Part shown: positions 1 through 16,321 of the stretch, piece after piece
Position numbering within the stretch: position 1 is the stretch's first letter
Layout: the number at the start of each line of letters is the position of its first letter
Sequence record: OP764672.1
DNA: 64,000 nt
Direction: 5' to 3' (one strand)
Origin: Klebsiella phage VB_KpP_HS106
The notes under the pieces: model-generated
Database searches by the model: none
The model's input: only the letters and a program-made list of their open reading frames with translations
What the model was told of the DNA's origin: nothing
Translations under genes and position numbers: made by a program

Positions 1-353
1 CCTCCGTTTCAAAACTTGTGGCAAACTTACTCTCTGGCGTATGTCAGCCTAACTCTGTACTACTTCCTGTATACAGTAAGTTACTGATAAGCCAGTCCAG
101 ATTAATCTATATATCAATTCTGAATATGCTTATAACAAAATGATATAAGACAAACCACTTGACACAGTGTTACTATCTCACTCAATCCCTTAACACAATC
201 CCTCACTTAACCCACTCCAGTCATCACATAGCTATAGATCTATTCTATGTAGAATCACCAGTTATCTCCGTACATCCTACCGGTGTACTCCGATAACATT
301 CACTCAGTACCGTGACCAGTTAACTTATATAGGGAATGGAGAGAATTGAGTGT

Positions 354-461
354 CAAATTACTACTTTCAATCTAATTTACAATTACATCATAACTATCCC
401 TATACTCACCCTATATCTTATCATCCACCTACCTCATACCTAATCACACCTATACTCTACA
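354..461 (+). repeat. 108-nt completely G-free tract (CA/T-only) with repeated cctatactc / cctatatct units
   Basis: Direct reading: no G between 354 and 461. cctatactc occurs twice. Confidence 0.8.
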
Positions 462-497
462 GTTATAGGTACATATACCCACAATAACATTAGTGGT

Positions 498-514
498 ATT
501 ACCCACAGGGTAAT
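498..514 (+). promoter_or_regulatory. Hairpin attaccc-aca-gggtaat (7-bp stem, 3-nt loop): candidate vRNAP hairpin promoter ~40 nt upstream of the first early ORF
   Basis: Perfect inverted repeat. CCC-NNN-GGG loop closure is shared with the hairpins at 5061, 5188, 10184 and 10528. N4 vRNAP uses 3-nt-loop hairpin promoters. Confidence 0.35.
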
Positions 515-552
515 GTATAGAAGTGTTCACTTAACCTAATGGAGTATTAACT

Positions 553-933
553 ATGCATTGCTATCACTGTGGTAAAGAGATTGTACGTAATGAAGACGGT
601 ATCACTCTAGACAACCTGAATTGGTCACACCATGAATGTATGGTGAGTAATGCCGTCCGTAACATGGACGATGAAGAGTGGACAATGCCTAAACCACTCA
701 CTGTATTTGATGGTAAGCCAGTAGCTGGTACTACACCACATCAACTGTGGGAAGCTATTCAACATGGTGCGATTGTCTGCACCTCTATCAGTAAAAGTAT
801 TGCCATGCTGCGTCCTGCTGGCTCAGATGAAACTTGCTATGTGTTCTGGGATGAGTGTGAGCAAATGTCTATGCCTTATGCATCTCAGAGTGATGCAAGT
901 GAAGCATTCAGCTTCTACTGTGCCAACCTGTAA
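553..933 (+). CDS. Early hypothetical protein with N-terminal Cys/His zinc-ribbon-like motif (CYHCGK...HHEC)
   Basis: ORF with GGAG RBS 8 nt upstream. Motifs CxxC and HxxC. Confidence 0.5.
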   Translation: MHCYHCGKEIVRNEDGITLDNLNWSHHECMVSNAVRNMDDEEWTMPKPLTVFDGKPVAGTTPHQLWEAIQHGAIVCTSISKSIAMLRPAGSDETCYVFWDECEQMSMPYASQSDASEAFSFYCANL

Positions 934-939
934 TTAATA

Positions 940-958
940 AGCCCAGCTAGTCTGGGCT
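940..958 (+). terminator. Hairpin agcccag-ctagt-ctgggct (AGCCC/GGGCT family) without a T-run
   Basis: 7-bp perfect stem immediately after the stop at 933. Confidence 0.4.
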
Positions 959-984
959 ATTACTAACCTATTGGAGTACTAACT

Positions 985-1269
985 ATGCGTGTTATTAAAA
1001 CCTCCGTAATGTTCTTCCCTGCTGACCCTTTTGTAGTTAACGAAACCACTAAACGTATCGGTTTCCCTGATGACCTGATTCAACCTGCTCAATGGTGTGT
1101 AGCTATTGAATTAGTAGTGGATAATAATCCCATGTCATCATCAATGCACCAGTATGCATTTACAGCCAAGCCTACATCCAAACAGGTACGTCGTTGTAAG
1201 CGTATAGCTATCAGTGAGCATGAGCGTGAATTAGCCCAGTTCATGACTGATTATCCACATTGGTTCTAA
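985..1269 (+). CDS. Early hypothetical protein
   Basis: ORF. Its RBS/start region is near-identical to that of the 553 ORF. Confidence 0.45.
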   Translation: MRVIKTSVMFFPADPFVVNETTKRIGFPDDLIQPAQWCVAIELVVDNNPMSSSMHQYAFTAKPTSKQVRRCKRIAISEHERELAQFMTDYPHWF

Positions 1270-1281
1270 CCCTATTTATTA

Positions 1282-1301
1282 AGCCCTGTGAAACCAGGGC
1301 T
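1282..1301 (+). terminator. Hairpin agccctg-tgaaac-cagggct (AGCCC/GGGCT family), no T-run
   Basis: Perfect 7-bp stem just after the stop at 1269. Confidence 0.4.
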
Positions 1302-1334
1302 ATTAATCAATATGCCAAATTAGAGGATTAAATC

Positions 1335-1526
1335 ATGCAAGTAATCAAATTCCATGAATTAGAAGATGGTACTCAGTTCATGTTTGCCCAGACATGGGCA
1401 TATGGTGACCGTAATGTATGGCAGAAAGCCGCAGAAGATGGTGATAACCATAACTGTGTGCTCATCAAAGATAGTAATAAAGTCAGCTTTGCTGGTCATA
1501 ATACTTTAGTAATCCCTGTTCATTAA
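1335..1526 (+). CDS. Early hypothetical protein (63 aa)
   Basis: ORF with AGAGGA RBS. Followed by the conserved TAAACCAGAGGT intergenic motif. Confidence 0.4.
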   Translation: MQVIKFHELEDGTQFMFAQTWAYGDRNVWQKAAEDGDNHNCVLIKDSNKVSFAGHNTLVIPVH

Positions 1527-1541
1527 ACCAGAGGTGTAATC

Positions 1542-1916
1542 ATGAATGTACTATTCCCTGTTAAGTTAATGTCCATCCTTGAGAGACTGAAAGACAATGC
1601 CAAATGGCAGAGTCAACTACATTATGCACAACATAATTACAATGAGTACTACCCAAAGGATGGTATGACCCGTGTGGCTTTAATGTCACCACAGTTGATG
1701 CATATCATCCCTAATGTGCTCATTACTCCTGAATATTTCCGTGTTCGTCTTGCCTACACTCCTGACTTTCTGAGAGTTAAGTATATAACTCTGGAAATCT
1801 ATGATGTGAATGGCAAGCTGTTACAGACTGTGCCCCACAGTGACTGGAATACTCTGTTATCCCTGGCAATTGAAACAGAGATGCTGGAAATACTCCTTAA
1901 TATCAACCCATGGTAA
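1542..1916 (+). CDS. Early hypothetical protein (124 aa)
   Basis: ORF preceded by TAAACCAGAGGTG. Confidence 0.45.
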   Translation: MNVLFPVKLMSILERLKDNAKWQSQLHYAQHNYNEYYPKDGMTRVALMSPQLMHIIPNVLITPEYFRVRLAYTPDFLRVKYITLEIYDVNGKLLQTVPHSDWNTLLSLAIETEMLEILLNINPW

Positions 1917-1929
1917 ACCAGAGGTAATT

Positions 1930-2202
1930 ATGGATCTTGAATTAGAGCTACATCGTAAAGCTGTCAAAGAAGCATCATATCCACATATCACTCGTAGACT
2001 AGTTCAAGACCAATTAGGTCAGCAGTGGTATGTCAACCGTATTGAAATAACCATCATGGGTGAAGAGTTCTATCACGTTAAATCAGAGATTAAAGGTGAG
2101 AAAGATAAGCTGTATGTATTACTGCTTAATATGCTCAAACATATCAAAGATGGTGGTGTGCTCAATCTTGAGCACTGGAAACGTATCGAATATACATATT
2201 AA
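1930..2202 (+). CDS. Early hypothetical protein (90 aa; start placed at the ATG after the second TAAACCAGAGGT motif)
   Basis: The internal ATG at 1930 has the GAGGT RBS. The longer 1810 start overlaps the preceding gene. Confidence 0.45.
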   Translation: MDLELELHRKAVKEASYPHITRRLVQDQLGQQWYVNRIEITIMGEEFYHVKSEIKGEKDKLYVLLLNMLKHIKDGGVLNLEHWKRIEYTY

Positions 2203-2207
2203 ACAAT

Positions 2208-2225
2208 AGCCCTCACTGGAGGGCT
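2208..2225 (+). terminator. Hairpin agccctc-actg-gagggct (AGCCC/GGGCT family)
   Basis: Perfect 7-bp stem after the stop at 2202. Confidence 0.4.
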
Positions 2226-2282
2226 TAGTTTATTAACGTGTTCTCCGAACACTCTTGTGAATCGGTCTACTGGAGACAGGGG

Positions 2283-2498
2283 ATGAAAACATACACTTTA
2301 GAAGAAGCCAGATTAATGCATAGCATAGGTATACGTATGCGATGTTTAGGTAGAGGTATACCCTCATTTATTAACCCTAAAACAATGTTAATGGTTACCA
2401 CTGAAACTATGGAATGTTATGCCTATGAAGGCACCTTCTATGGGGATATTCGTATATACCCATCTCATTGTATATGGGAGATAGCAGATGACATTTAA
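2283..2498 (+). CDS. Small early protein, member 1 of a six-gene tandem paralog array (A-L-x-x-G-C/V-K ... W-E-I/V motifs)
   Basis: ATG with GGAGACAGGGG RBS. Shares the C-terminal WEI motif and the LG..MRCLG N-terminal motif with the following five ORFs. Confidence 0.45.
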   Translation: MKTYTLEEARLMHSIGIRMRCLGRGIPSFINPKTMLMVTTETMECYAYEGTFYGDIRIYPSHCIWEIADDI

Positions 2499-2703
2499 CG
2501 AAGCCAGAGCTGCATTAGCTATTGGGTGTAAAATTACTAACTATACCATCTGGAGTCCTGATAGATATATTTACCTAGAAGGATCCATGTTAATCAACGA
2601 AAGAGGTATCCCTTTTATACCTTTAAATAGTCTTGAACATATAATGTTTCTAGGATGCTGGGAGATCCATCATGAGCAAACTAACAACAGAGAAGGAAAT
2701 TAA
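2488..2703 (+). CDS. Tandem paralog 2 (EARAALAIGCKI...WEIHHE)
   Basis: Overlaps neighbours at start and stop. Motif shared across the array. Confidence 0.55.
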   Translation: MTFNEARAALAIGCKITNYTIWSPDRYIYLEGSMLINERGIPFIPLNSLEHIMFLGCWEIHHEQTNNREGN

Positions 2704-2899
2704 AACAGCATTATCTATAGGCTGTAAGTTACATCATAGTACCTGGGCTTCTCATGCTTATATCTACTGTAAAGGCTCCGATGTATATGTTGAATCTGGT
2801 AATAGAATTGGAACTACAGATAATGTGGAACTTAGGGTTTCAAACATAGGACATTGGGAGATATATCATGAAAACCAAGGAAGCAATACTAGCTCTTAA
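2672..2899 (+). CDS. Tandem paralog 3 (EIKTALSIGCKL...WEIYHE)
   Basis: Shared motif. Overlapping starts and stops. Confidence 0.55.
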   Translation: MSKLTTEKEIKTALSIGCKLHHSTWASHAYIYCKGSDVYVESGNRIGTTDNVELRVSNIGHWEIYHENQGSNTSS

Positions 2900-3071
2900 A
2901 CTAGGATGTAAAGTCAGGAGTATTAACTGGAGGAGAGGTGAATACATAGAACTGGAAACCAGTACTGGAATGTGCATAGATGAACGTAAATTAAACCACC
3001 TACATATTGATGAAATCGCTATTTGTCATGATCCATTAACAAAGTGGGAGTTATTCAATGACAACAGCTGA
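2868..3071 (+). CDS. Tandem paralog 4 (EAILALKLGCKV...WELF)
   Basis: Shared motif. Confidence 0.55.
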   Translation: MKTKEAILALKLGCKVRSINWRRGEYIELETSTGMCIDERKLNHLHIDEIAICHDPLTKWELFNDNS

Positions 3072-3249
3072 AGCATTGCTTGCAATGAAGATAGGATGCA
3101 GGATCAGAGCTGACTGGATGAAGCCAGAACTATTCTATTACATCAAAGGAGATAATGTATGTTGTGATAATACTATACCTCCTGGACTTATTAAAGTATC
3201 CGAATTCTGCTCATTCTTTGATGACTCTCATGATTGGTACATTGTATGA
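3058..3249 (+). CDS. Tandem paralog 5 (EALLAMKIGCRI...DWYIV)
   Basis: Shared motif. Confidence 0.55.
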   Translation: MTTAEALLAMKIGCRIRADWMKPELFYYIKGDNVCCDNTIPPGLIKVSEFCSFFDDSHDWYIV

Positions 3250-3455
3250 ATGCTAAAGAAGCAGTATTGATGCTGAAATTAGGGGTTAAGCTAAAAAGAC
3301 CTTATTGGGAAGGTGAAACATATATAATCTTGGGGCCTAATGACACAATATGTCTAAAGTCCCCTGATGGGGATGTCACCAAAGATACAGTAGAAGGGTT
3401 TCTAACTCAAAAATGGACAGATTGGGAGGTATATTGTCCACAGGACAATAAATGA
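3246..3455 (+). CDS. Tandem paralog 6 (EAVLMLKLGVKL...WEVY)
   Basis: ATGA start/stop overlap with paralog 5. Shared motif. Confidence 0.55.
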   Translation: MNAKEAVLMLKLGVKLKRPYWEGETYIILGPNDTICLKSPDGDVTKDTVEGFLTQKWTDWEVYCPQDNK

Positions 3456-3521
3456 ATATGTTACTACTTGCTTACATATCTGGTTTTATCCTAATCCTCT
3501 ATTTACTATGGGAACATTACT

Positions 3522-3860
3522 ATGAGTAAAATAATTTATGTCTATGCACCTGCTATGCAAAAGTGTATTCATATCCGTGTTACTGATGCATGGCTCAAGA
3601 AAGTAAAGATGGCTTTAGCCATTGGTATTACCCTTGATGGATACTGTGTTGATGGTTCACGTATCAAACGTAAGAACCAGAGAAATATATCCAGCACTCG
3701 TGCAGATACTGATGATATGTTTAAAGGATACGATGTATTCCTTAATAAACATGGTGTATGGGAATTCAAAAAGTATGTACCTAAACAAAGATTCCACGGT
3801 GTAGTAAGTGGACGGTGGTCAAGTAGTGCTGGAAGCATCCAAAACTTACCCAAGGAATAA
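3522..3860 (+). CDS. Early protein with L7/L12-CTD-like motif (KVKMALAIGITLDG), family member
   Basis: Motif [IVL]K.[IV]....A[IL]G[IL] is shared by nine ORFs. Confidence 0.5.
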   Translation: MSKIIYVYAPAMQKCIHIRVTDAWLKKVKMALAIGITLDGYCVDGSRIKRKNQRNISSTRADTDDMFKGYDVFLNKHGVWEFKKYVPKQRFHGVVSGRWSSSAGSIQNLPKE

Positions 3861-3862
3861 CT

Positions 3863-4138
3863 ATGTTAATAGAATTAAGTATGTTAACTACTTCCCTGCG
3901 TTCTTGGGAATATGTAGATAAACAACCACCTGTCTATTCAATATCAGATAGTGAGATTAAGAAAGCTAAGATACAACATAGCATTGGTATCACTGAACCA
4001 AGAGTTAATGTGTCTAAGCTGCGTATTAAAATGGGTGAAAAAGCATCCATTAAAAATGTGCTATTCCTCAACAATACTAAAGCTATGAGGCTTTATAAAG
4101 ACGAAGAAGGTTTCTACCTTAAGGAGATAGACTGGTGA
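3863..4138 (+). CDS. Early protein with L7/L12-CTD-like motif (IKKAKIQHSIGITEPR)
   Basis: Family motif. Tight spacing from the previous gene. Confidence 0.5.
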   Translation: MLIELSMLTTSLRSWEYVDKQPPVYSISDSEIKKAKIQHSIGITEPRVNVSKLRIKMGEKASIKNVLFLNNTKAMRLYKDEEGFYLKEIDW

Positions 4139-4263
4139 AATACTTCGCAATCATTTCATTCTTCTGTAATGAGAACTTCAACAATGCACTCAATGTAATT
4201 GAGCAATATAAACCTGTATTAACCCAGGAGGAGTATGACTGGTTAATATCAGTATGGGGGTAA
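4135..4263 (+). CDS. Possible 42-aa gap-filling ORF with a GTG start overlapping the upstream stop (GTGA)
   Basis: Only a GTG start is available. It fills the 126-nt gap between flanking genes exactly. Confidence 0.2.
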   Translation: MKYFAIISFFCNENFNNALNVIEQYKPVLTQEEYDWLISVWG

Positions 4264-4264
4264 T

Positions 4265-4519
4265 ATGAGCTACTATGCTGTATTTGGGGATATTCACCCC
4301 TCACTAATGGTTAGAGTAGATGAAGCTGAAATTAAAGCTATTCAAACTAAACTAGCCATTGGTATTAAACCAGAGGACATAAGACTACAGAACAAGATGC
4401 GTGATGGTAGCAGAAATCTGGGGACTCAAGATTATCTAATTCTCAATGATACTGAGTACGCTATTATAAGCAAAGGTCAGTATCTGTGTCTGGAGAGACT
4501 GGACAATGACTACTTCTAA
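4265..4519 (+). CDS. Early protein with L7/L12-CTD-like motif (IKAIQTKLAIGIKPEDIRL)
   Basis: Family motif. Confidence 0.5.
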   Translation: MSYYAVFGDIHPSLMVRVDEAEIKAIQTKLAIGIKPEDIRLQNKMRDGSRNLGTQDYLILNDTEYAIISKGQYLCLERLDNDYF

Positions 4520-4546
4520 CCAAGTATTTAACTGGCATTCTAAGAG

Positions 4547-4801
4547 ATGCTAGGTGAAGGGACTATATCTTATTATAGTGACTTCAACATTGGCATTAAT
4601 GCCACTATTACTATCACCAAATTCAATGTAGCACTGGAGAAGTTCCCACGTATTGCAGTGGTAGACTTCCCAGCTTCGCTAGATGGTTTTTATAAAAAGA
4701 ACTTCACTATCAGAGTAGATATGCGTGAAATTAAAGCTCTGATGGCTAAAGTAGCCATTGGAGTCCCAGTTATCCTTGAACAACGGATCTCATTCTCATG
4801 A
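4547..4801 (+). CDS. Early protein with L7/L12-CTD-like motif (IKALMAKVAIGVPVILE)
   Basis: Family motif. Confidence 0.5.
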   Translation: MLGEGTISYYSDFNIGINATITITKFNVALEKFPRIAVVDFPASLDGFYKKNFTIRVDMREIKALMAKVAIGVPVILEQRISFS

Positions 4802-5058
4802 TCGATGTAAATATTACACTGGAACAATGCCAGCTGGCTTATGAAGGTGGTATGGATGAGTTAGCTCTGAAGCTATTCACCCGTGCTGTAAGCCATTTGT
4901 GTGCAAATGTGGATGAGACTGAAGCACTCAATGTAGTAGCTGAAATCCTCACTGAAGACTGTATTGATACTCTTCATGAATATCAGGCTCTCATTATCTC
5001 TGATCCGGCAGAACATGCTGCTTATGAAGATATCATCTCGTCCATCTTTCTTATTTAA
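4798..5058 (+). CDS. Acidic early hypothetical protein; its 3' end lies in copy 1 of the 127-bp duplication
   Basis: ORF with ATGA overlap to the upstream gene. Confidence 0.45.
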   Translation: MIDVNITLEQCQLAYEGGMDELALKLFTRAVSHLCANVDETEALNVVAEILTEDCIDTLHEYQALIISDPAEHAAYEDIISSIFLI

Positions 5059-5060
5059 GA

Positions 5061-5079
5061 CATTGCCCACAGGGCAATG
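5061..5079 (+). promoter_or_regulatory. Hairpin cattgccc-aca-gggcaatg (8-bp stem, 3-nt loop), copy 1: candidate vRNAP promoter
   Basis: Same cccacaggg core as the hairpin at 498-514. Confidence 0.35.
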
Positions 5080-5187
5080 AATGCAAAGGCAATCCTGCCT
5101 GTTCGAATATCAGGCTCTCATTATCTCTGATCCGGCAGAACATGCTGCTTATGAAGATATCATCTCGTCCATCTTTCTTATTTAAGA

Positions 5188-5206
5188 CATTGCCCACAGG
5201 GCAATG
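5188..5206 (+). promoter_or_regulatory. Hairpin cattgccc-aca-gggcaatg, copy 2, ~60 nt upstream of the codon-optimised gene at 5268
   Basis: Identical to copy 1. Confidence 0.35.
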
Positions 5207-5267
5207 AATGCAAAGGCAATCCTGCCTGTTCGTTCTTCATTTCATATTAACTATCGAGGTATTTATC

Positions 5268-5558
5268 ATGGCTTTTCAGAAAAACACTGCTGCAAGCAAC
5301 ACTTCCAATTCCTCTGCTAACAACGCTGCTGCTCCTGCCGAGCGTAACGTTGGTGGCTATCTGAACATCGGCGTCAAAGGCCGTGATGGTCAGGTTCGTC
5401 GTCTGGGCCAGGGTGGCCGTGGCATCGCTCTGCGTGAAGATCACCCGGTTGAAGGTGCAGTACTAACCTTCCTGCGTGAGCACGGCGTAGAAGCCCTCTC
5501 AGAGCGTCTGGTAATCACCTTTGGTGATGCTAAGGCACTGGAAAACTTCGAACTGTAA
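5268..5558 (+). CDS. Early protein (96 aa) with codon usage typical of highly expressed genes (CGT/CTG/GGC/AAC/GAA), Ala/Asn/Ser-rich N-terminus
   Basis: ATG with GAGGT RBS. The longer 5208 start lies inside the duplication. Codon bias is visibly different from neighbouring ORFs. Confidence 0.55.
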   Translation: MAFQKNTAASNTSNSSANNAAAPAERNVGGYLNIGVKGRDGQVRRLGQGGRGIALREDHPVEGAVLTFLREHGVEALSERLVITFGDAKALENFEL

Positions 5559-5565
5559 TCCATAT

Positions 5566-5584
5566 GCCCAGCCTTGTGCTGGGC
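5566..5584 (+). terminator. Hairpin gcccagc-cttgt-gctgggc followed by tattta
   Basis: Perfect 7-bp stem after the stop at 5558. Confidence 0.4.
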
Positions 5585-5604
5585 TATTTAATTGAGGATA
5601 TACC

Positions 5605-5955
5605 ATGGCTAAAGAGAAAAACTGGAATGACCGTTGGGGTAATGAAGCTAAATCACGTAGACGAGGCTCCAGATATCGTTGGAGTATTAAAGAGTTTCAG
5701 GATACTGATACCTCTACTCATATTGCCAGTAAAGGCAGTAATAGCAGTCTCTGTGTGCTTATCACTAAGACTCTGGTTAAGCAGATACTGATGCGTAAAG
5801 CACTGGGATTAAAAGAATTTAGACTGAATAAGATGATCACCTGTAATGGTGAACAGCTGCCTAAATATCCTATGCCCAATGTGCTGATAAACCAGAGTAT
5901 CTGGGTATCTGCCAAGTATATCAACAAAGACATATGGGAGTTCTATCTTGAATGA
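5605..5955 (+). CDS. Early protein with L7/L12-CTD-like motif (ILMRKALGLKEFRL)
   Basis: Family motif. GAGGA RBS. Confidence 0.5.
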   Translation: MAKEKNWNDRWGNEAKSRRRGSRYRWSIKEFQDTDTSTHIASKGSNSSLCVLITKTLVKQILMRKALGLKEFRLNKMITCNGEQLPKYPMPNVLINQSIWVSAKYINKDIWEFYLE

Positions 5956-6253
5956 TTCATGGGAAGGCCTTGTAGGCAAGAGTATTACTTCTGGCTTTGA
6001 TGGACATGTATATATCGTCCTTGAAGAGTCATGGCTTAAACAACTCCGTACCCAGTATATGCTGGGTATTAAGGAACCTTTACTCAGGCTTCCGGGAGTA
6101 ATAGGTAAGTACAAAACCAACAGTGAGTACAGGCTTAATACTGGTTACTTCCCTGAAGGGATAGCTAGTTCTAAACCAAGAATAATAGCTGACAGGATCA
6201 ATGAACCTGGCTGTGAATGGCAATTACGAGTAGTAAGAGGAGTTAACGGATGA
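5948..6253 (+). CDS. Early protein with L7/L12-CTD-like motif (LKQLRTQYMLGIKEPLLRL)
   Basis: Family motif. Confidence 0.5.
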   Translation: MNDSWEGLVGKSITSGFDGHVYIVLEESWLKQLRTQYMLGIKEPLLRLPGVIGKYKTNSEYRLNTGYFPEGIASSKPRIIADRINEPGCEWQLRVVRGVNG

Positions 6254-6528
6254 CTGCTGAACTTAAACCAGCAAAATTACATACTTACTGTAAGTTTTGC
6301 AAAGCTAATGGTGTTAAACGTGTAGCTAACTGGATGAGCAAATATGCTCCCAGAGGTGGCATGAGAGACACCTACAAGCATTATGCATGTACTGAACATA
6401 AACACCTCATTGAGGATACCGATCCTAACAGGACTCGTGTGGCTGAAAATGCTGAACTGGCTAAAGCCAGAAAAGAAGTGGATGACCACATGACAGAAGC
6501 TGACTATCAAACATGGGGAAGATTGTAA
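6250..6528 (+). CDS. Small Cys/His-rich (zinc-ribbon-like) protein
   Basis: CKFCK...YACTEHKH motifs. ATGA overlap upstream. Confidence 0.45.
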   Translation: MTAELKPAKLHTYCKFCKANGVKRVANWMSKYAPRGGMRDTYKHYACTEHKHLIEDTDPNRTRVAENAELAKARKEVDDHMTEADYQTWGRL

Positions 6529-7535
6529 TGCAACATAAATGGTTACCAGTTGAGGAACTTCAGGCCATCAACGAACGTCAGTTCAACAGGAAACATATTG
6601 ATGGTTATATCCGTAAAGAGCTGTTTGAAGACCCTGAATGTAACCTTTTAGATAAGGTAGAACAGGGTGTATCTCTGTTAAACCAGTGGCTCGAAGGTCA
6701 GTATTATGACTCTAAAGCTGTACGCCTTAACCACCTCAAATCCCTTGATCTGGAAGCCATTGTGAAAGAAGTGTTCGTGGGAATCATGTATTTCCCTGAA
6801 CCTACTCCAATGGTCAACGTAGTAGGCCAGCTGGCTTCCAGACTGGGTTTCGATGATAAACGTGACAGCATTCAGACTATGGCTGAAATAGTAGCTGTCC
6901 TCACGGATACTGACGTATATGACATTAACAAGCCTCATCCTAAAGCATCTCTGTATATCGTTAGCAATATTGGGTTGCCTGACCAGTTGGCTCAATTCAT
7001 TGAGCGTTCGTGTTATTTACCACCACTGGTTTGCCCACCCAAGAAGCTTACCCATAACATGGATACTCCTTACCTTACTTATTCATCTGATAGCCTTATT
7101 CTAGGGGGATCATTCAATCACCATAACGAGGATATCTGTCTGGATGTAATCAACAGCCGTAATGCTGTGCCTTACTCTCTGGACATAGAATTCCTCTGTA
7201 ACTATGAGGAAGAACCTACATTTGATCTCAATGAGATCGATGAAGAGAAGCTCCAGAAACACCGTAAGAAACCTCTCACACCGTGGGAGAAGGCTGATCT
7301 GGTACGTAAACAGAAAGACAACTGGATGCGTTATAAACGCCAGTCGTACTACTTCTATAGCCTGATGGCAAACCAGGGTAATGAGTTCTACTTTGGCAAC
7401 AAGGTAGACAAACGTGGACGTATCTATACCCAGGGTTATCACATCAACCTTCAAGGCACTCCCTTCAAGAAAGCCAGTTTAAACTTTGCCAATAAAGAGC
7501 AAGTAACTGGTGTGCCTGATGAATTTAAACTTTAA
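6528..7535 (+). CDS. N4 RNAPII-like small subunit: N-terminal half of a T7-like single-subunit RNA polymerase
   Basis: DKRGRIYTQGYHINLQGTPFKKASL matches T7 RNAP DWRGRVYAVSMFNPQGNDMTKGLL. The start is taken at the TAATG overlap with a GGGGAAG RBS. Confidence 0.8.
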   Translation: MQHKWLPVEELQAINERQFNRKHIDGYIRKELFEDPECNLLDKVEQGVSLLNQWLEGQYYDSKAVRLNHLKSLDLEAIVKEVFVGIMYFPEPTPMVNVVGQLASRLGFDDKRDSIQTMAEIVAVLTDTDVYDINKPHPKASLYIVSNIGLPDQLAQFIERSCYLPPLVCPPKKLTHNMDTPYLTYSSDSLILGGSFNHHNEDICLDVINSRNAVPYSLDIEFLCNYEEEPTFDLNEIDEEKLQKHRKKPLTPWEKADLVRKQKDNWMRYKRQSYYFYSLMANQGNEFYFGNKVDKRGRIYTQGYHINLQGTPFKKASLNFANKEQVTGVPDEFKL

Positions 7536-7552
7536 ATAGAGAGACTTAACTA

Positions 7553-8827
7553 ATGGTAATCAACACTGCTTATGGCCCAAACTTCAAATATATGTCTGGT
7601 TGGGAATATATGTGCATCGACGTAGCCAACTACTACGGACTGGACAAGAAACTGTTCGAAGAACGTATTCAGTGGGTGTACGACAACATCAAGGATCTGG
7701 AATCCAAAGTGCAGGATGCTGAAACCCCTGAGCTGTACCATAAAGCTGTCATGACTTTACGTCGTGTACAGCATGGGGAAGCTGTAGGCAATATCACCTA
7801 TTGGGATGGCTGCTGCTCTGGCATCCAGATTATGAGTGCCCTCACAGGCTGTGAGAAGGGTGCTTACAACACTGGTTGTATTGACCCAGAGAAACGTATG
7901 GATGCCTACAGCAACACCACAGACGCCATGAATGGCGTTCTGAAGCGTAAAGGTCTGGATAGTATCCAAGTACCTCGTAGCCATATCAAACAAGCTGTAA
8001 TGACCTCTGGTTACGGTTCTAAGGCTGTGCCTAAGAAGGTATTCGGTGAGGGCGAGATGCTGGACTACTTCTACGAAGCAGCCCACATCATCGCTCCTGG
8101 TGCGTTCAACCTCATGGATGAACTCCTGGGTTCCTGGCGTCCTTATGCTCTGGAACACGTTCTGGAGCTGCCTGATGGCTTCATTGCTAAGATGAAAGTC
8201 ATGGAAACTCTGGAAACCAGAATTGAAGTAGACGAGCTTGATCATGCTACTTTCACCATGGAATACAAAGAGAACCGGGGTACAGAGAAAGGCCGTGCTA
8301 ACGTAGCCAATACCATTCACTGCTGTGATGCCTACTTGCTGCGTGAACTGGAGCGTCTGTGCAACTATGATCCAGAGCTGGTAGCAGAGGCGCAGAAGAT
8401 GCTGGAAGCACGCCTACTGGCTCATAGCATGGGTATGCAGGCTGAAGAAGCTACTGATGATATGGTACGTCGTATCCGTCTGTGGGACGAGAATAAGCAG
8501 TCTTCTATGGTTATTCTCAACGATATCAACTGGAGCAACTACATGCAGTTACCTATCGACTTAGCTCGTGATGTAATGCGTAAAGTTAACTTCATGCTGA
8601 CTTACAAACCATTCCCTGTGGCTACTGTTCACGATGCCTTCGGATCCCACCCAAACAACTGTAACGAAGTACGGTACTGGTACAAAGAGATGCTGGCAGA
8701 ATTCGCTGATAGCACCATTCTACAATCTCTGATGAACCAGCTATATCAAACTACTGACGGTGTGTATACCAAGTTGTCTAACAACCTCGGAGATAAGATA
8801 CGTGGATCCAACTATGCTCTTTCATAG
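7553..8827 (+). CDS. N4 RNAPII-like large subunit: C-terminal catalytic half of a T7-like RNA polymerase
   Basis: DGCCSGIQIMSALTG matches T7 DGSCSGIQHFSAM (motif A). TVHDAFGSHP matches IHDSFGT (motif C). Confidence 0.85.
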   Translation: MVINTAYGPNFKYMSGWEYMCIDVANYYGLDKKLFEERIQWVYDNIKDLESKVQDAETPELYHKAVMTLRRVQHGEAVGNITYWDGCCSGIQIMSALTGCEKGAYNTGCIDPEKRMDAYSNTTDAMNGVLKRKGLDSIQVPRSHIKQAVMTSGYGSKAVPKKVFGEGEMLDYFYEAAHIIAPGAFNLMDELLGSWRPYALEHVLELPDGFIAKMKVMETLETRIEVDELDHATFTMEYKENRGTEKGRANVANTIHCCDAYLLRELERLCNYDPELVAEAQKMLEARLLAHSMGMQAEEATDDMVRRIRLWDENKQSSMVILNDINWSNYMQLPIDLARDVMRKVNFMLTYKPFPVATVHDAFGSHPNNCNEVRYWYKEMLAEFADSTILQSLMNQLYQTTDGVYTKLSNNLGDKIRGSNYALS

Positions 8828-8857
8828 TATGATTCTTACTCATTTGAGGAGAATACT

Positions 8858-9298
8858 ATGGCTAGTGTAGATGAGTACATGAAGCTCAACTCCCCCTTGC
8901 AGAAGCGGGGGGAGGAGCTACAGAAACAAAGCAGTAAAAGCTGGGAAGCATTAGGTAATCCCACCAGCATTTCAGAGTATCTGGATGCTGTGGGTAAACT
9001 TGCTGCCCAGCAAAAAGCAGTATATGACTCCAGCCAACCACCTGTAGTTTCACAGCTATGGAGAAACCTGAATCCAGCTACATCAATTCCTGACGCTATA
9101 GGTAACTTCTATAATGCCAGTCAGAATGATGACTATGTGGGAATGGGTGTAGCAGCAGCTACAGGTATTCCATTCATCCCGGCTTTCAAAGTATTGAAAG
9201 CTATTAACCCACTGATGAAACTTGATTTAGCTAAATCAGGGGCCAGAGCAGTTACCAATGAGTTAGGTAGTCGATTAAGTGACTACTTCAGTGAATAA
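8858..9298 (+). CDS. Hypothetical protein (146 aa)
   Basis: ORF with GAGGAG RBS, followed by a strong terminator. Confidence 0.5.
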   Translation: MASVDEYMKLNSPLQKRGEELQKQSSKSWEALGNPTSISEYLDAVGKLAAQQKAVYDSSQPPVVSQLWRNLNPATSIPDAIGNFYNASQNDDYVGMGVAAATGIPFIPAFKVLKAINPLMKLDLAKSGARAVTNELGSRLSDYFSE

Positions 9299-9805: not shown

Positions 9806-10185
9806 AGTACATGGTGCCAAGAGGTACTGTTAAGAGAATCAAAACAGCTAATGCCATAGGCATACAAGAGCTGGAGCTGAAGCCAGTTACTGTCATTGCA
9901 GCAGTAGAAGGGCAATTTGAAGTCATACATAAAAATTCCATACCAGGAATTGAAATGGACTTAGAGTCTGCCCCACTAGGCTGGATCTACTGGAAACCAG
10001 GCAACGAGGAGCAACCTGTGTACAACTCTATGAAGATGTTAGAGGAAGTGCTTAGAAGACAGGAAATAAACAACCCTAAACAATTTATTAGTGATCGGTC
10101 TATTCGGGAGATTAAAAGTACATCTGACATAGCTGATGCTTTTAACTTCTTCAATAAAATATATAGCGATAATACTAAGCTTTGA
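9781..10185 (+). CDS. Protein with L7/L12-CTD-like segment (VKRIKTANAIGIQELELK)
   Basis: Family motif. Confidence 0.5.
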   Translation: MECNMDTIKYMVPRGTVKRIKTANAIGIQELELKPVTVIAAVEGQFEVIHKNSIPGIEMDLESAPLGWIYWKPGNEEQPVYNSMKMLEEVLRRQEINNPKQFISDRSIREIKSTSDIADAFNFFNKIYSDNTKL

Positions 10186-10200
10186 TGCCCTCCGGGCATC
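10184..10200 (+). promoter_or_regulatory. Hairpin gatgccc-tcc-gggcatc (7-bp stem, 3-nt loop TCC, i.e. GGA on the template strand)
   Basis: Perfect inverted repeat overlapping the stop at 10185. Its loop is identical to the GGA loop of the N4 P2 promoter, recalled from the literature. Confidence 0.3.
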
Positions 10201-10527: not shown

Positions 10528-10542
10528 GTGACCTCCGGTCAC
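10528..10542 (+). promoter_or_regulatory. Hairpin gtgacc-tcc-ggtcac (6-bp stem, 3-nt loop TCC)
   Basis: Perfect inverted repeat 7 nt after the stop. Same loop as the hairpin at 10184. Confidence 0.3.
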
Positions 10543-15139: not shown

Positions 15140-16321
15140 ATGTCACCACTTGAGAAGATCCTCGACAAAGCCTTTACTACTCTGGCTTTGGATGAGAAGT
15201 ATGTGTTCTGGGCTTCAATGATCCTCAGATTAAAACATAAGGAAGTGCCCGCTGGGCACCCTTGTGATTCTGCTTACACGGATTCTTTAACCGTGTATTA
15301 CAACCAGAAATTCATGGAGATGCTCAAACCTGCTGAACACCCTTTTGTGGTGGCTCACGAAGTTGGGCATATTGTGCATGAACACTGCACTACTTTCCCT
15401 GGCGATCTGGATGAAGATCTGTGGAACCAGGCTGGTGACTATGTAATCAACCTGGAACTGAAAAAGTCTGGAATGCCAATGCCTACAACTATTAAGGTAC
15501 TGGTAGACTCCCGCTTTGATGGCATGACCACCATGCAGGTATACCGAATTCTTCAACAGGAAGAGGCTAAGAATCCAGGCACTCACAAGGGTAAGAACCC
15601 TATGCCTGATTTCAATAAACAGCCTCTGACTCAAGAAGATCAGGAAAGCCAGAAACAGCAAATTGATAGCATCTTATTAGGTGCTAACATGGCAGCTGAA
15701 ATGGCTGAGGCAAACCAGACTGGTAAACAGTTTGGGCGTGGTACTAAGGATATGGCTCGCCGTATTGAGGATCTCCTGAATCCCCCAATTCCATGGCAGC
15801 ACTATCTGAAGATCTTCTGTGAGAAGGTCACACGTAAGCCTGGTCGTACCTGGTCACGTCTTCGTCGTCGTATGCTGGTACACGATATCACTGCTCCAGA
15901 ACGCCGTGGTAAGTCCCTGGGACGTATTTCATGGGCTATTGACGTATCTGGTTCCATTGGAAAGAAAGAGTTCACCATCTTCTTAGGTGGTGTCTATCAG
16001 GTACTGAAACTGTTTAAACCCGACGAAATAAAGCTGTATCAGTTTGATACTGATATCAAGGATATCTCCCGGATCTGTACAGTGCGTGATCTGCTCAATG
16101 TTAAATTCAGTGGTGGTGGTGGTACTTGTATCGACAGTACTATTGAAGACTTCGCCCGTGATAAAGCATCACTGGGGATGTTCATCCTGACTGATGGTTA
16201 CCTCAGCCAGCACAATCTGGTAGATCCTAAACGTCCTGTAATCTGGTTCGTTTATGATAACCCCAACTTTGTACCAAAATTTGGCAAAGTGGTTCACTTT
16301 ACAATGGAAGGGCTTGTATAG
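15140..16321 (+). CDS. von Willebrand factor A domain protein with N-terminal HExxH metallopeptidase-like motif
   Basis: MIDAS motif AIDVSGSIG. HEVGHIVHEH motif. Confidence 0.65.
   Translation: MSPLEKILDKAFTTLALDEKYVFWASMILRLKHKEVPAGHPCDSAYTDSLTVYYNQKFMEMLKPAEHPFVVAHEVGHIVHEHCTTFPGDLDEDLWNQAGDYVINLELKKSGMPMPTTIKVLVDSRFDGMTTMQVYRILQQEEAKNPGTHKGKNPMPDFNKQPLTQEDQESQKQQIDSILLGANMAAEMAEANQTGKQFGRGTKDMARRIEDLLNPPIPWQHYLKIFCEKVTRKPGRTWSRLRRRMLVHDITAPERRGKSLGRISWAIDVSGSIGKKEFTIFLGGVYQVLKLFKPDEIKLYQFDTDIKDISRICTVRDLLNVKFSGGGGTCIDSTIEDFARDKASLGMFILTDGYLSQHNLVDPKRPVIWFVYDNPNFVPKFGKVVHFTMEGLV

Follow-up and report, generated by a model that had tools for sequence, protein, structure and literature searches.

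A perfect 127-base tandem repeat upstream of a Drc-like gene in an Efbeekayvirus genome record: a probable assembler overlap that carries a putative N4-type hairpin promoter

Early region and structure of the repeat

The window analysed here is a stretch of 64,000 nucleotides of record OP764672.1. It comes from an N4-like Klebsiella phage (Schitoviridae, genus Efbeekayvirus) and shows 92-95% identity to phages P184, FBKp27, GADU21 and others. The published genome of this phage, vB_KpP_HS106 (OP764672), has 76,430 bp and a GC content of 44.0%, and is closest to P184; A5-miseq and SPAdes 3.12 were used for its assembly, and collinearity with published genomes for the ordering (PMC10466807). Small early genes, oriented rightward, fill the left 6.5 kb of the window, and are followed by the two subunits of the T7-like RNA polymerase II of the phage (RNAPII, 6513-7535 and 7553-8827).

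Two tandem arrays of small paralogous early ORFs are found at 2488-3455 and 3522-4801. Five of these ORFs, with 63-75 aa, start with a common 'A..AL..G.K' motif, and several others, with 84-112 aa, carry an 'IK....LAIG' motif and give rise to direct repeats of ~375-400 bases. A Pfam scan of the array ORFs of the window gave no match at E ≤ 0.01, although for homologues from relatives PF11195 (Tad2-like) is weakly flagged. The locus studied here comprises the following features:

4798-5058, plus strand: early ORF of 86 aa, with its 3' end within the repeated unit and no family match
4978-5104, plus strand: copy 1 of the 127-base unit, made up of the 81-base 3' end of the 86-aa ORF, hairpin 1 (main), hairpin 2 (small) and 4 more bases
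5061-5079, plus strand: ACA-loop (class A) hairpin CATTGCCC-ACA-GGGCAATG, copy 1, centred at 5070, a putative N4-type early promoter
5081-5185, plus strand: ORF of 34 aa, a product of the junction alone, whose ATG lies 3' of hairpin 1 and which reads in frame into the second tail of the 86-aa ORF
5087-5100, plus strand: small hairpin AGGCAATCCTGCCT, copy 1, at the 5' end of the predicted transcript
5105-5231, plus strand: copy 2 of the 127-base unit, 100% identical to copy 1
5188-5206, plus strand: ACA-loop hairpin CATTGCCC-ACA-GGGCAATG, copy 2, centred at 5197, at the position that matches the single copy of relatives
5214-5227, plus strand: small hairpin AGGCAATCCTGCCT, copy 2, followed by GTTCGTTCTT, flagged as weakly terminator-like and invariant in relatives
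5268-5558, plus strand: Drc-like gene of 96 aa, a putative ssDNA-binding cofactor of the phage RNA polymerase II (phrog_6271), with the highest codon optimisation
5566-5584, plus strand: GC-rich terminator-like hairpin, followed by TATTTAATT, which closes the Drc transcription unit

The 86-aa ORF is annotated in relatives as a hypothetical CDS of 261 bases, and a Pfam search gave no match for it or for the neighbouring small ORFs. To describe the repeat we used two programs, which agree. Tandem Repeats Finder reports the stretch 4978-5232 with a period of 127, 2.0 copies, 100% matches, no indels and a score of 510, while the direct-repeat search gives 4978-5104 and 5105-5231 as copies with 100% identity, which abut with no spacer. 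As the repeated stretch has 255 bases, the register 4979-5105 and 5106-5232, in which the original prediction had placed a perfect duplication, is equally exact, and that part of the prediction is confirmed. The identity ends at both flanks, with no further matching base outside the 255-base stretch, and the unit is the sole direct repeat of at least 30 bases with high identity in the 64-kb window. A perfect match of 127 bases cannot have originated by chance. Two hairpins had also been predicted in each copy, and both are present, the main one at 5061-5079 and 5188-5206, and the small one at 5087-5100 and 5214-5227. Between the end of copy 2 and the ATG at 5268 there are 36 bases.

The Drc-like gene downstream of the repeat

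The product of 5268-5558 is, by sequence comparison, a homologue of Drc. It matches phrog_6271 over residues 1-90 (E = 1e-12), the family that is also matched by Drc of LUZ7 (gp14; E = 5e-37), and hhalign gave E = 9e-4. Tyr31, which is invariant in 21 homologues, aligns with Tyr23 of Drc, a tyrosine needed for ssDNA binding (PMC7145618). The predicted structure of the protein is of moderate confidence (pLDDT 65), and searches of Pfam and of the PDB sequences gave no match. The PHROG label of the family, 'toxin', mirrors the toxicity of gp14 on expression (PMC7145618).

A GAGG ribosome-binding site is located 9 bases upstream of the ATG at 5268. The codons of the gene, which had been claimed to be strongly optimised, are indeed so: with an E. 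coli-type set of optimal codons, following the classical table, the optimal-codon fraction is 0.80 vs 0.50 ± 0.09, and the gene ranks first of the 92 ORFs with at least 80 aa. The hairpin at 5566-5584 that closes the transcription unit belongs to a terminator-like class, AGCCC...GGGCT followed by an ATT/TTT-rich stretch, which is also present at 940-958, 2208-2225 and ~1283-1303. These hairpins stand directly after early genes, and split the early region into short transcription units.

The GenBank records of relatives differ in how this gene is annotated. The CDS has 351 bases in four records and 291 in two, and the product is named 'toxin', 'hypothetical protein' or 'ssDNA binding RNA polymerase cofactor binding protein'. 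The 351-base CDS begins at an ATG just past the promoter hairpin (5208 in the window) and not at the GAGG-preceded ATG (5268), and is annotated 60 bases too long. In a further record, OY979417.1 (phage K17alpha62), the feature table does not fit the underlying sequence: features for the virion RNA polymerase and for structural-protein pseudogenes overlie the early genes, as if the coordinates of the table had been displaced against the sequence.

Hairpin families and their reading as promoters

The main hairpin of the unit has an 8-bp stem and a 3-nt loop, and begins 2 bases past the stop codon of the 86-aa ORF. Together with the small hairpin (5061-5079 and 5087-5100) it is predicted to form in single-stranded DNA, with −12.4 kcal/mol and z = −3.5, and none of 200 shuffled sequences folded equally well. 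Two other hairpins of the window belong to the same family:

498-514, plus strand: ACA-loop hairpin ATTACCC-ACA-GGGTAAT, centred at 506, with the ATG of the first gene (553) 47 bases downstream
3432-3450, plus strand: ACA-loop hairpin TATTGTCC-ACA-GGACAATA, centred at 3441, at the end of ORF 3234-3455 and 81 bases upstream of ATG 3522

The three hairpins have a common A..CC-ACA-GG..T core and an AATG-like motif downstream, and their stems are different yet complementary. All of them lie within the first 5.1 kb, in the orientation of the genes and 47-81 bases upstream of a start codon, and all are invariant at syntenic sites in all relatives. In an alignment of 26 distinct relatives the proportion of invariant columns is 80-88% from ~20 bases before the stop codon of the 86-aa ORF to the ATG of the Drc-like gene, vs 0-28% in the upstream ORF, so that the 5' leader downstream of the main hairpin is also strongly conserved. 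Pairing in the stems was 100%, and in 5 of 7 pairs both bases had changed, but this covariation was discounted as support because the sites had been picked for perfect stems. The support that is free of this circularity comes from the loop and flanks that the hairpins have in common, from their synteny and from their conservation.

In the early promoters of phage N4, inverted repeats flank a GC-rich heptamer whose centre is at −11, and the element is recognised as a hairpin of the template strand, the 3-nt loop of which has a purine in the middle (PMC4496689). We located P1-P3 at 96, 565 and 4554 in the N4 sequence, and they have the same architecture as the ACA-loop hairpins: in both phages there are three early sites at the left end, with a GC-rich core, variable inverted repeats, a stem of 5-8 bp and a 3-nt loop, and the location of P2 before gp2 in N4 resembles that of the site found here directly before the RNAPII cofactor gene. 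The loop reads TGT on the template strand, and its central G provides the purine at −11 that the N4-type rule needs. In contrast, the top-strand loop is ACA here and TCC or TTC in N4, the stems are longer (7-8 bp vs 5-7 bp), and the cofactor belongs to the Drc family and is not gp2. The N4-specific template bases −10G, −8G and +1C are missing, and −10T, −8C and +1T are found at the 11-base spacing. The ACA-loop hairpin thus falls outside the promoter consensus of N4 itself, and represents a lineage-specific variant.

A further parallel is provided by LUZ7, where two early hairpin promoters, separated by 32-33 bases, precede Drc, and up to 64% of the phage transcripts come from this gene (PMC9163698). 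We observed these hairpins at 3669 and 3701, with TAC loops. Both phages have lineage-specific, conserved hairpin promoters (putative here) with a 3-nt loop directly upstream of the Drc gene. LUZ7 transcripts start on a G located 13-14 bases beyond the centre of the hairpin, and the window also has a G at +13/+14. The very high expression of Drc in LUZ7 has its counterpart here in what the codon usage suggests. The two LUZ7 hairpins have distinct sequences, AGACC-TAC-GGTCT and CAGGC-TAC-GCCTG, and were mapped by experiment, whereas in the window one sequence is copied along with 81 bases of the upstream gene, at a distance of 127 bases and in no relative. Three early hairpin promoters were also proposed in silico for the CB1-like N4-like phages of Pectobacterium, a Drc-encoding lineage (PMC6027278, Table S4). 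Their loops are again lineage-specific, TAT as in ACCGG-TAT-CCGGT (PMC6027278), and the sequence differs from that of the ACA-loop hairpins, both sets being predictions only. In the more distant Enterobacter phage SABI, whose DNA is not alignable with the window, we found two hairpins, AACGTGC-ATA-GCACGTT and AACGCGC-ATA-GCGCGTT. The second of them precedes the SABI homologue of the 5268 gene by 81 bases.

By analogy with these phages, the hairpin of a single copy is a credible early promoter, resembling the virion-RNA-polymerase promoters of N4. In the mechanism proposed, the hairpin would extrude from supercoiled DNA, and the injected virion RNA polymerase would recognise the template-strand hairpin, as at the N4 early promoters. 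Transcription would begin 11-13 bases beyond the loop centre, and the transcript, with the small stem-loop in its leader, would encode the Drc-type ssDNA-binding cofactor, on which middle transcription by the second phage RNA polymerase would depend, and end at the hairpin 5566-5584. Counted from the loop centre, the N4 rule places the start at 11 bases and the LUZ7 rule at 13-14 bases, on a G. The predicted start is then ~5081-5083 for copy 1 and ~5208-5210 for copy 2, the latter giving a leader of 58-60 nt to the ATG at 5268. We infer both the polymerase that uses the hairpin and the start site. The small hairpin at 5214-5227 is more likely a stem-loop of this 5' leader than a terminator. 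The putative early promoter that had been predicted in each unit is therefore supported for a single copy, as one of a small set of conserved hairpins in the leftmost part of an N4-like genome, and the proposal of a strong early promoter before a very highly expressed gene is likewise sound for the single copy, given the parallel with LUZ7 Drc (PMC9163698). The scheme itself is the known one of N4 and LUZ7, which reaches another genus and is unchanged there.

Host-type signals were also considered. No sigma-70 −35/−10 hexamers at a spacing of 16-18 bases are present inside 4978-5231, and a sigma-70 promoter reading of the main hairpin was rejected; one weak sigma-70-like site (9/12) is located at 5241-5269. 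In the region 1-9000 sigma-70-like matches are depleted, with 12 found vs 24.8 ± 4.4 in shuffled sequence, as would fit an early region that is not read by the host polymerase.

A second family of hairpins, with TCC or GCT loops, is also present in the window:

2238-2252: GTGTTC-TCC-GAACAC, centred at 2245
10184-10200: GATGCCC-TCC-GGGCATC, centred at 10192
10528-10542: GTGACC-TCC-GGTCAC, centred at 10535
15245-15259: GTGCCC-GCT-GGGCAC, centred at 15252

These hairpins are intergenic, and downstream of each stands a YTTGYGA motif, with a G at a distance of 12 bases from the loop centre. Relatives conserve this family, and Enterobacter phage SABI has analogous sites at 3928, 10811 and 12319. Most sites lie beyond the RNAPII genes, and the middle promoters of LUZ7 are also GC-rich hairpins, on which grounds this family probably represents the middle promoters for RNAPII with Drc.

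Two other readings of the hairpins have to be weighed against this one. The assignment of the two families could be reversed, the ACA-loop hairpins serving the second phage polymerase (RNAPII with Drc) and the TCC-loop hairpins the virion polymerase. TCC loops are those of N4 P2 and P3 and are conserved in a second genus, the G of this class sits 12 bases past the loop centre, and of the two classes it is the TCC one that agrees with the bases −10G and −12A of N4 recognition. Yet RNAPII needs Drc for its activity, so the Drc gene should itself be early, and the leftmost hairpin, before the first gene, is of the ACA class, with no TCC hairpin further left in P184 or in the Logan contig that spans the genome ends. 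Of the four TCC-class sites, three are located past the RNAPII genes, in a part of the genome expected to contain middle genes, and the GC-rich hairpins of the LUZ7 middle promoters point the same way, so that we regard the reversed assignment as possible but doubtful. It is very unlikely, on the other hand, that the main hairpin is a terminator or RNA-stability element of the upstream 86-aa gene and not a promoter. Its position 2 bases after the stop codon would suit such a role, it would form in RNA too, and the small hairpin, which has a T-rich tail, is flagged as weakly terminator-like; however, the main hairpin is followed by AATGCAAAGG and not by a T-run, for which reason an intrinsic terminator was rejected. 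In addition, the terminator-like sites of this genome (940-958, 2208-2225 and 5566-5584) form a distinct class, the family member at 498-514 precedes the first gene and has nothing to terminate, and an Rfam search of 4000-6500 gave no match even at E = 1.

Origin and meaning of the duplication

A comparison with related genomes, which the original prediction had proposed, gave exactly one copy of the unit in each of the 31 related loci that were retrieved (10 from GenBank, 7 from IMG/VR, 13 from Logan and 1 from ENA). The gap between the stop codon and the Drc ATG is 82 bases in the relatives and 209 in the window, which corresponds to 82 + 127. A 40-mer spanning the junction was not found in viral, metagenome and genome collections, all three without the source genome. 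The microhomology at the junction is 1 base, i.e. at chance level, and the boundaries of the unit are arbitrary, its start being within an ORF and its end within the leader.

The maximum k of SPAdes is 127, other common assembler k values being 55, 77 and 99, and for a self-closing contig SPAdes writes the first k bases a second time at the end. Such untrimmed k-mer overlaps on circularly closed SPAdes contigs are known for phage genomes (PMC5923482, PMC8104045), and in one genome announcement 127-bp terminal repeats were removed and the phage genome was then re-opened (PMC8104045). We compared the first k with the last k bases of five sibling Efbeekayvirus GenBank records:

OP413827.1 (pKP-BM327-1.2), flagged circular: overlap of 127 bases
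OP413831.1 (pKP-BM327-1.1), flagged circular: overlap of 127 bases
PQ133600.1 (P19-618), flagged linear: overlap of 77 bases
ON004963.2 (GADU21), flagged circular: no overlap
PP738785.1 (Tribble_ER49), flagged circular: no overlap

An exact terminal k-mer overlap has been kept in three of the five records, and untrimmed overlap is common within the Efbeekayvirus group. The stated genome lengths of these three records are too long by the corresponding amount. Reading OP413827.1 and OP413831.1 as circles, or re-opening them elsewhere, yields a perfect tandem duplication of 127 bases; both are flagged circular, and carry a false tandem duplication at the origin.

The length of the unit, the single copy in all 31 related loci, the near absence of microhomology and the overlaps in sibling records together indicate, with a probability of about 87%, that the 127-base duplication is an artefact of the assembly or of the record, and is absent from the phage genome itself. 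In the assembly history that we infer, the direct terminal repeats of N4-like phages would cause short-read assemblies to close into a circle, and SPAdes would leave its 127-base k-mer overlap at both ends of the self-closing contig. The overlap would have remained untrimmed when the sequence was re-opened elsewhere or read across the record origin, and the end and start of the contig would thereby have been placed head to tail at the join between 5104 and 5105, which is presumably the junction of the two ends of the original contig. The real genome would hold a single copy of the unit. The repeat has the characteristics of a SPAdes k-mer overlap, namely 127 bases, 100% identity, two copies, an arbitrary site and no counterpart in relatives, but differs in that the copies are arranged head to tail inside the sequence and not at its two ends. 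As the repeat is internal in the window, a re-opening or wrap-around step must be assumed. An origin in the terminal repeats themselves was rejected, since those of N4-like phages lie at the genome ends, several kb leftward, and have 400-650 bases.

The alternative is that the duplication is real, and that a very recent tandem event in this isolate doubled the hairpin promoter before the Drc-like gene and raised early expression. The repeat is present in the sequence as given, and a recent event is compatible with its perfect identity. Furthermore, LUZ7 has two tandem early hairpin promoters before Drc, its most expressed gene, so that an extra promoter could be advantageous and a selected doubling is biologically conceivable. 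However, a real event gives no reason for a length exactly equal to the SPAdes maximum k, a doubled unit occurs in 0 of 31 related loci, and the junction offers only 1 base of microhomology. The unit also takes in 81 coding bases and cuts the leader, with boundaries that respect no functional unit, and in three of the five sibling records a like overlap is an obvious end artefact. We therefore consider a real duplication unlikely, and find it rather improbable that the isolate was caught evolving the LUZ7-type tandem arrangement, through a genuine doubling of a virion-polymerase hairpin promoter. If the duplication were true, hairpin promoters would be amplifiable through simple tandem duplication. 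The doubled promoter that the original prediction had proposed for the genome is hence not upheld, and of the two origins it had offered for the perfect identity, a very recent event or an assembly artefact, the second is strongly favoured and the first is not.

With the artefact as the preferred explanation, the duplication matters little as biology, and the practical point is one of data quality: where a short-read phage assembly shows a tandem repeat of 127 bases, an assembler overlap left untrimmed should be presumed until reads contradict this. In the window the consequences of such an overlap are a 34-aa ORF that is spurious and a 'double promoter' that is false, and at least three deposited Efbeekayvirus genomes have a like overlap at their ends. 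For the annotation of Efbeekayvirus genomes, the analysis provides a putative promoter family of three members with ACA loops and a second family of hairpins with TCC loops, and the gene that is often labelled 'toxin' or 'hypothetical' may be assigned, from its sequence relationships, as a Drc-type polymerase cofactor.
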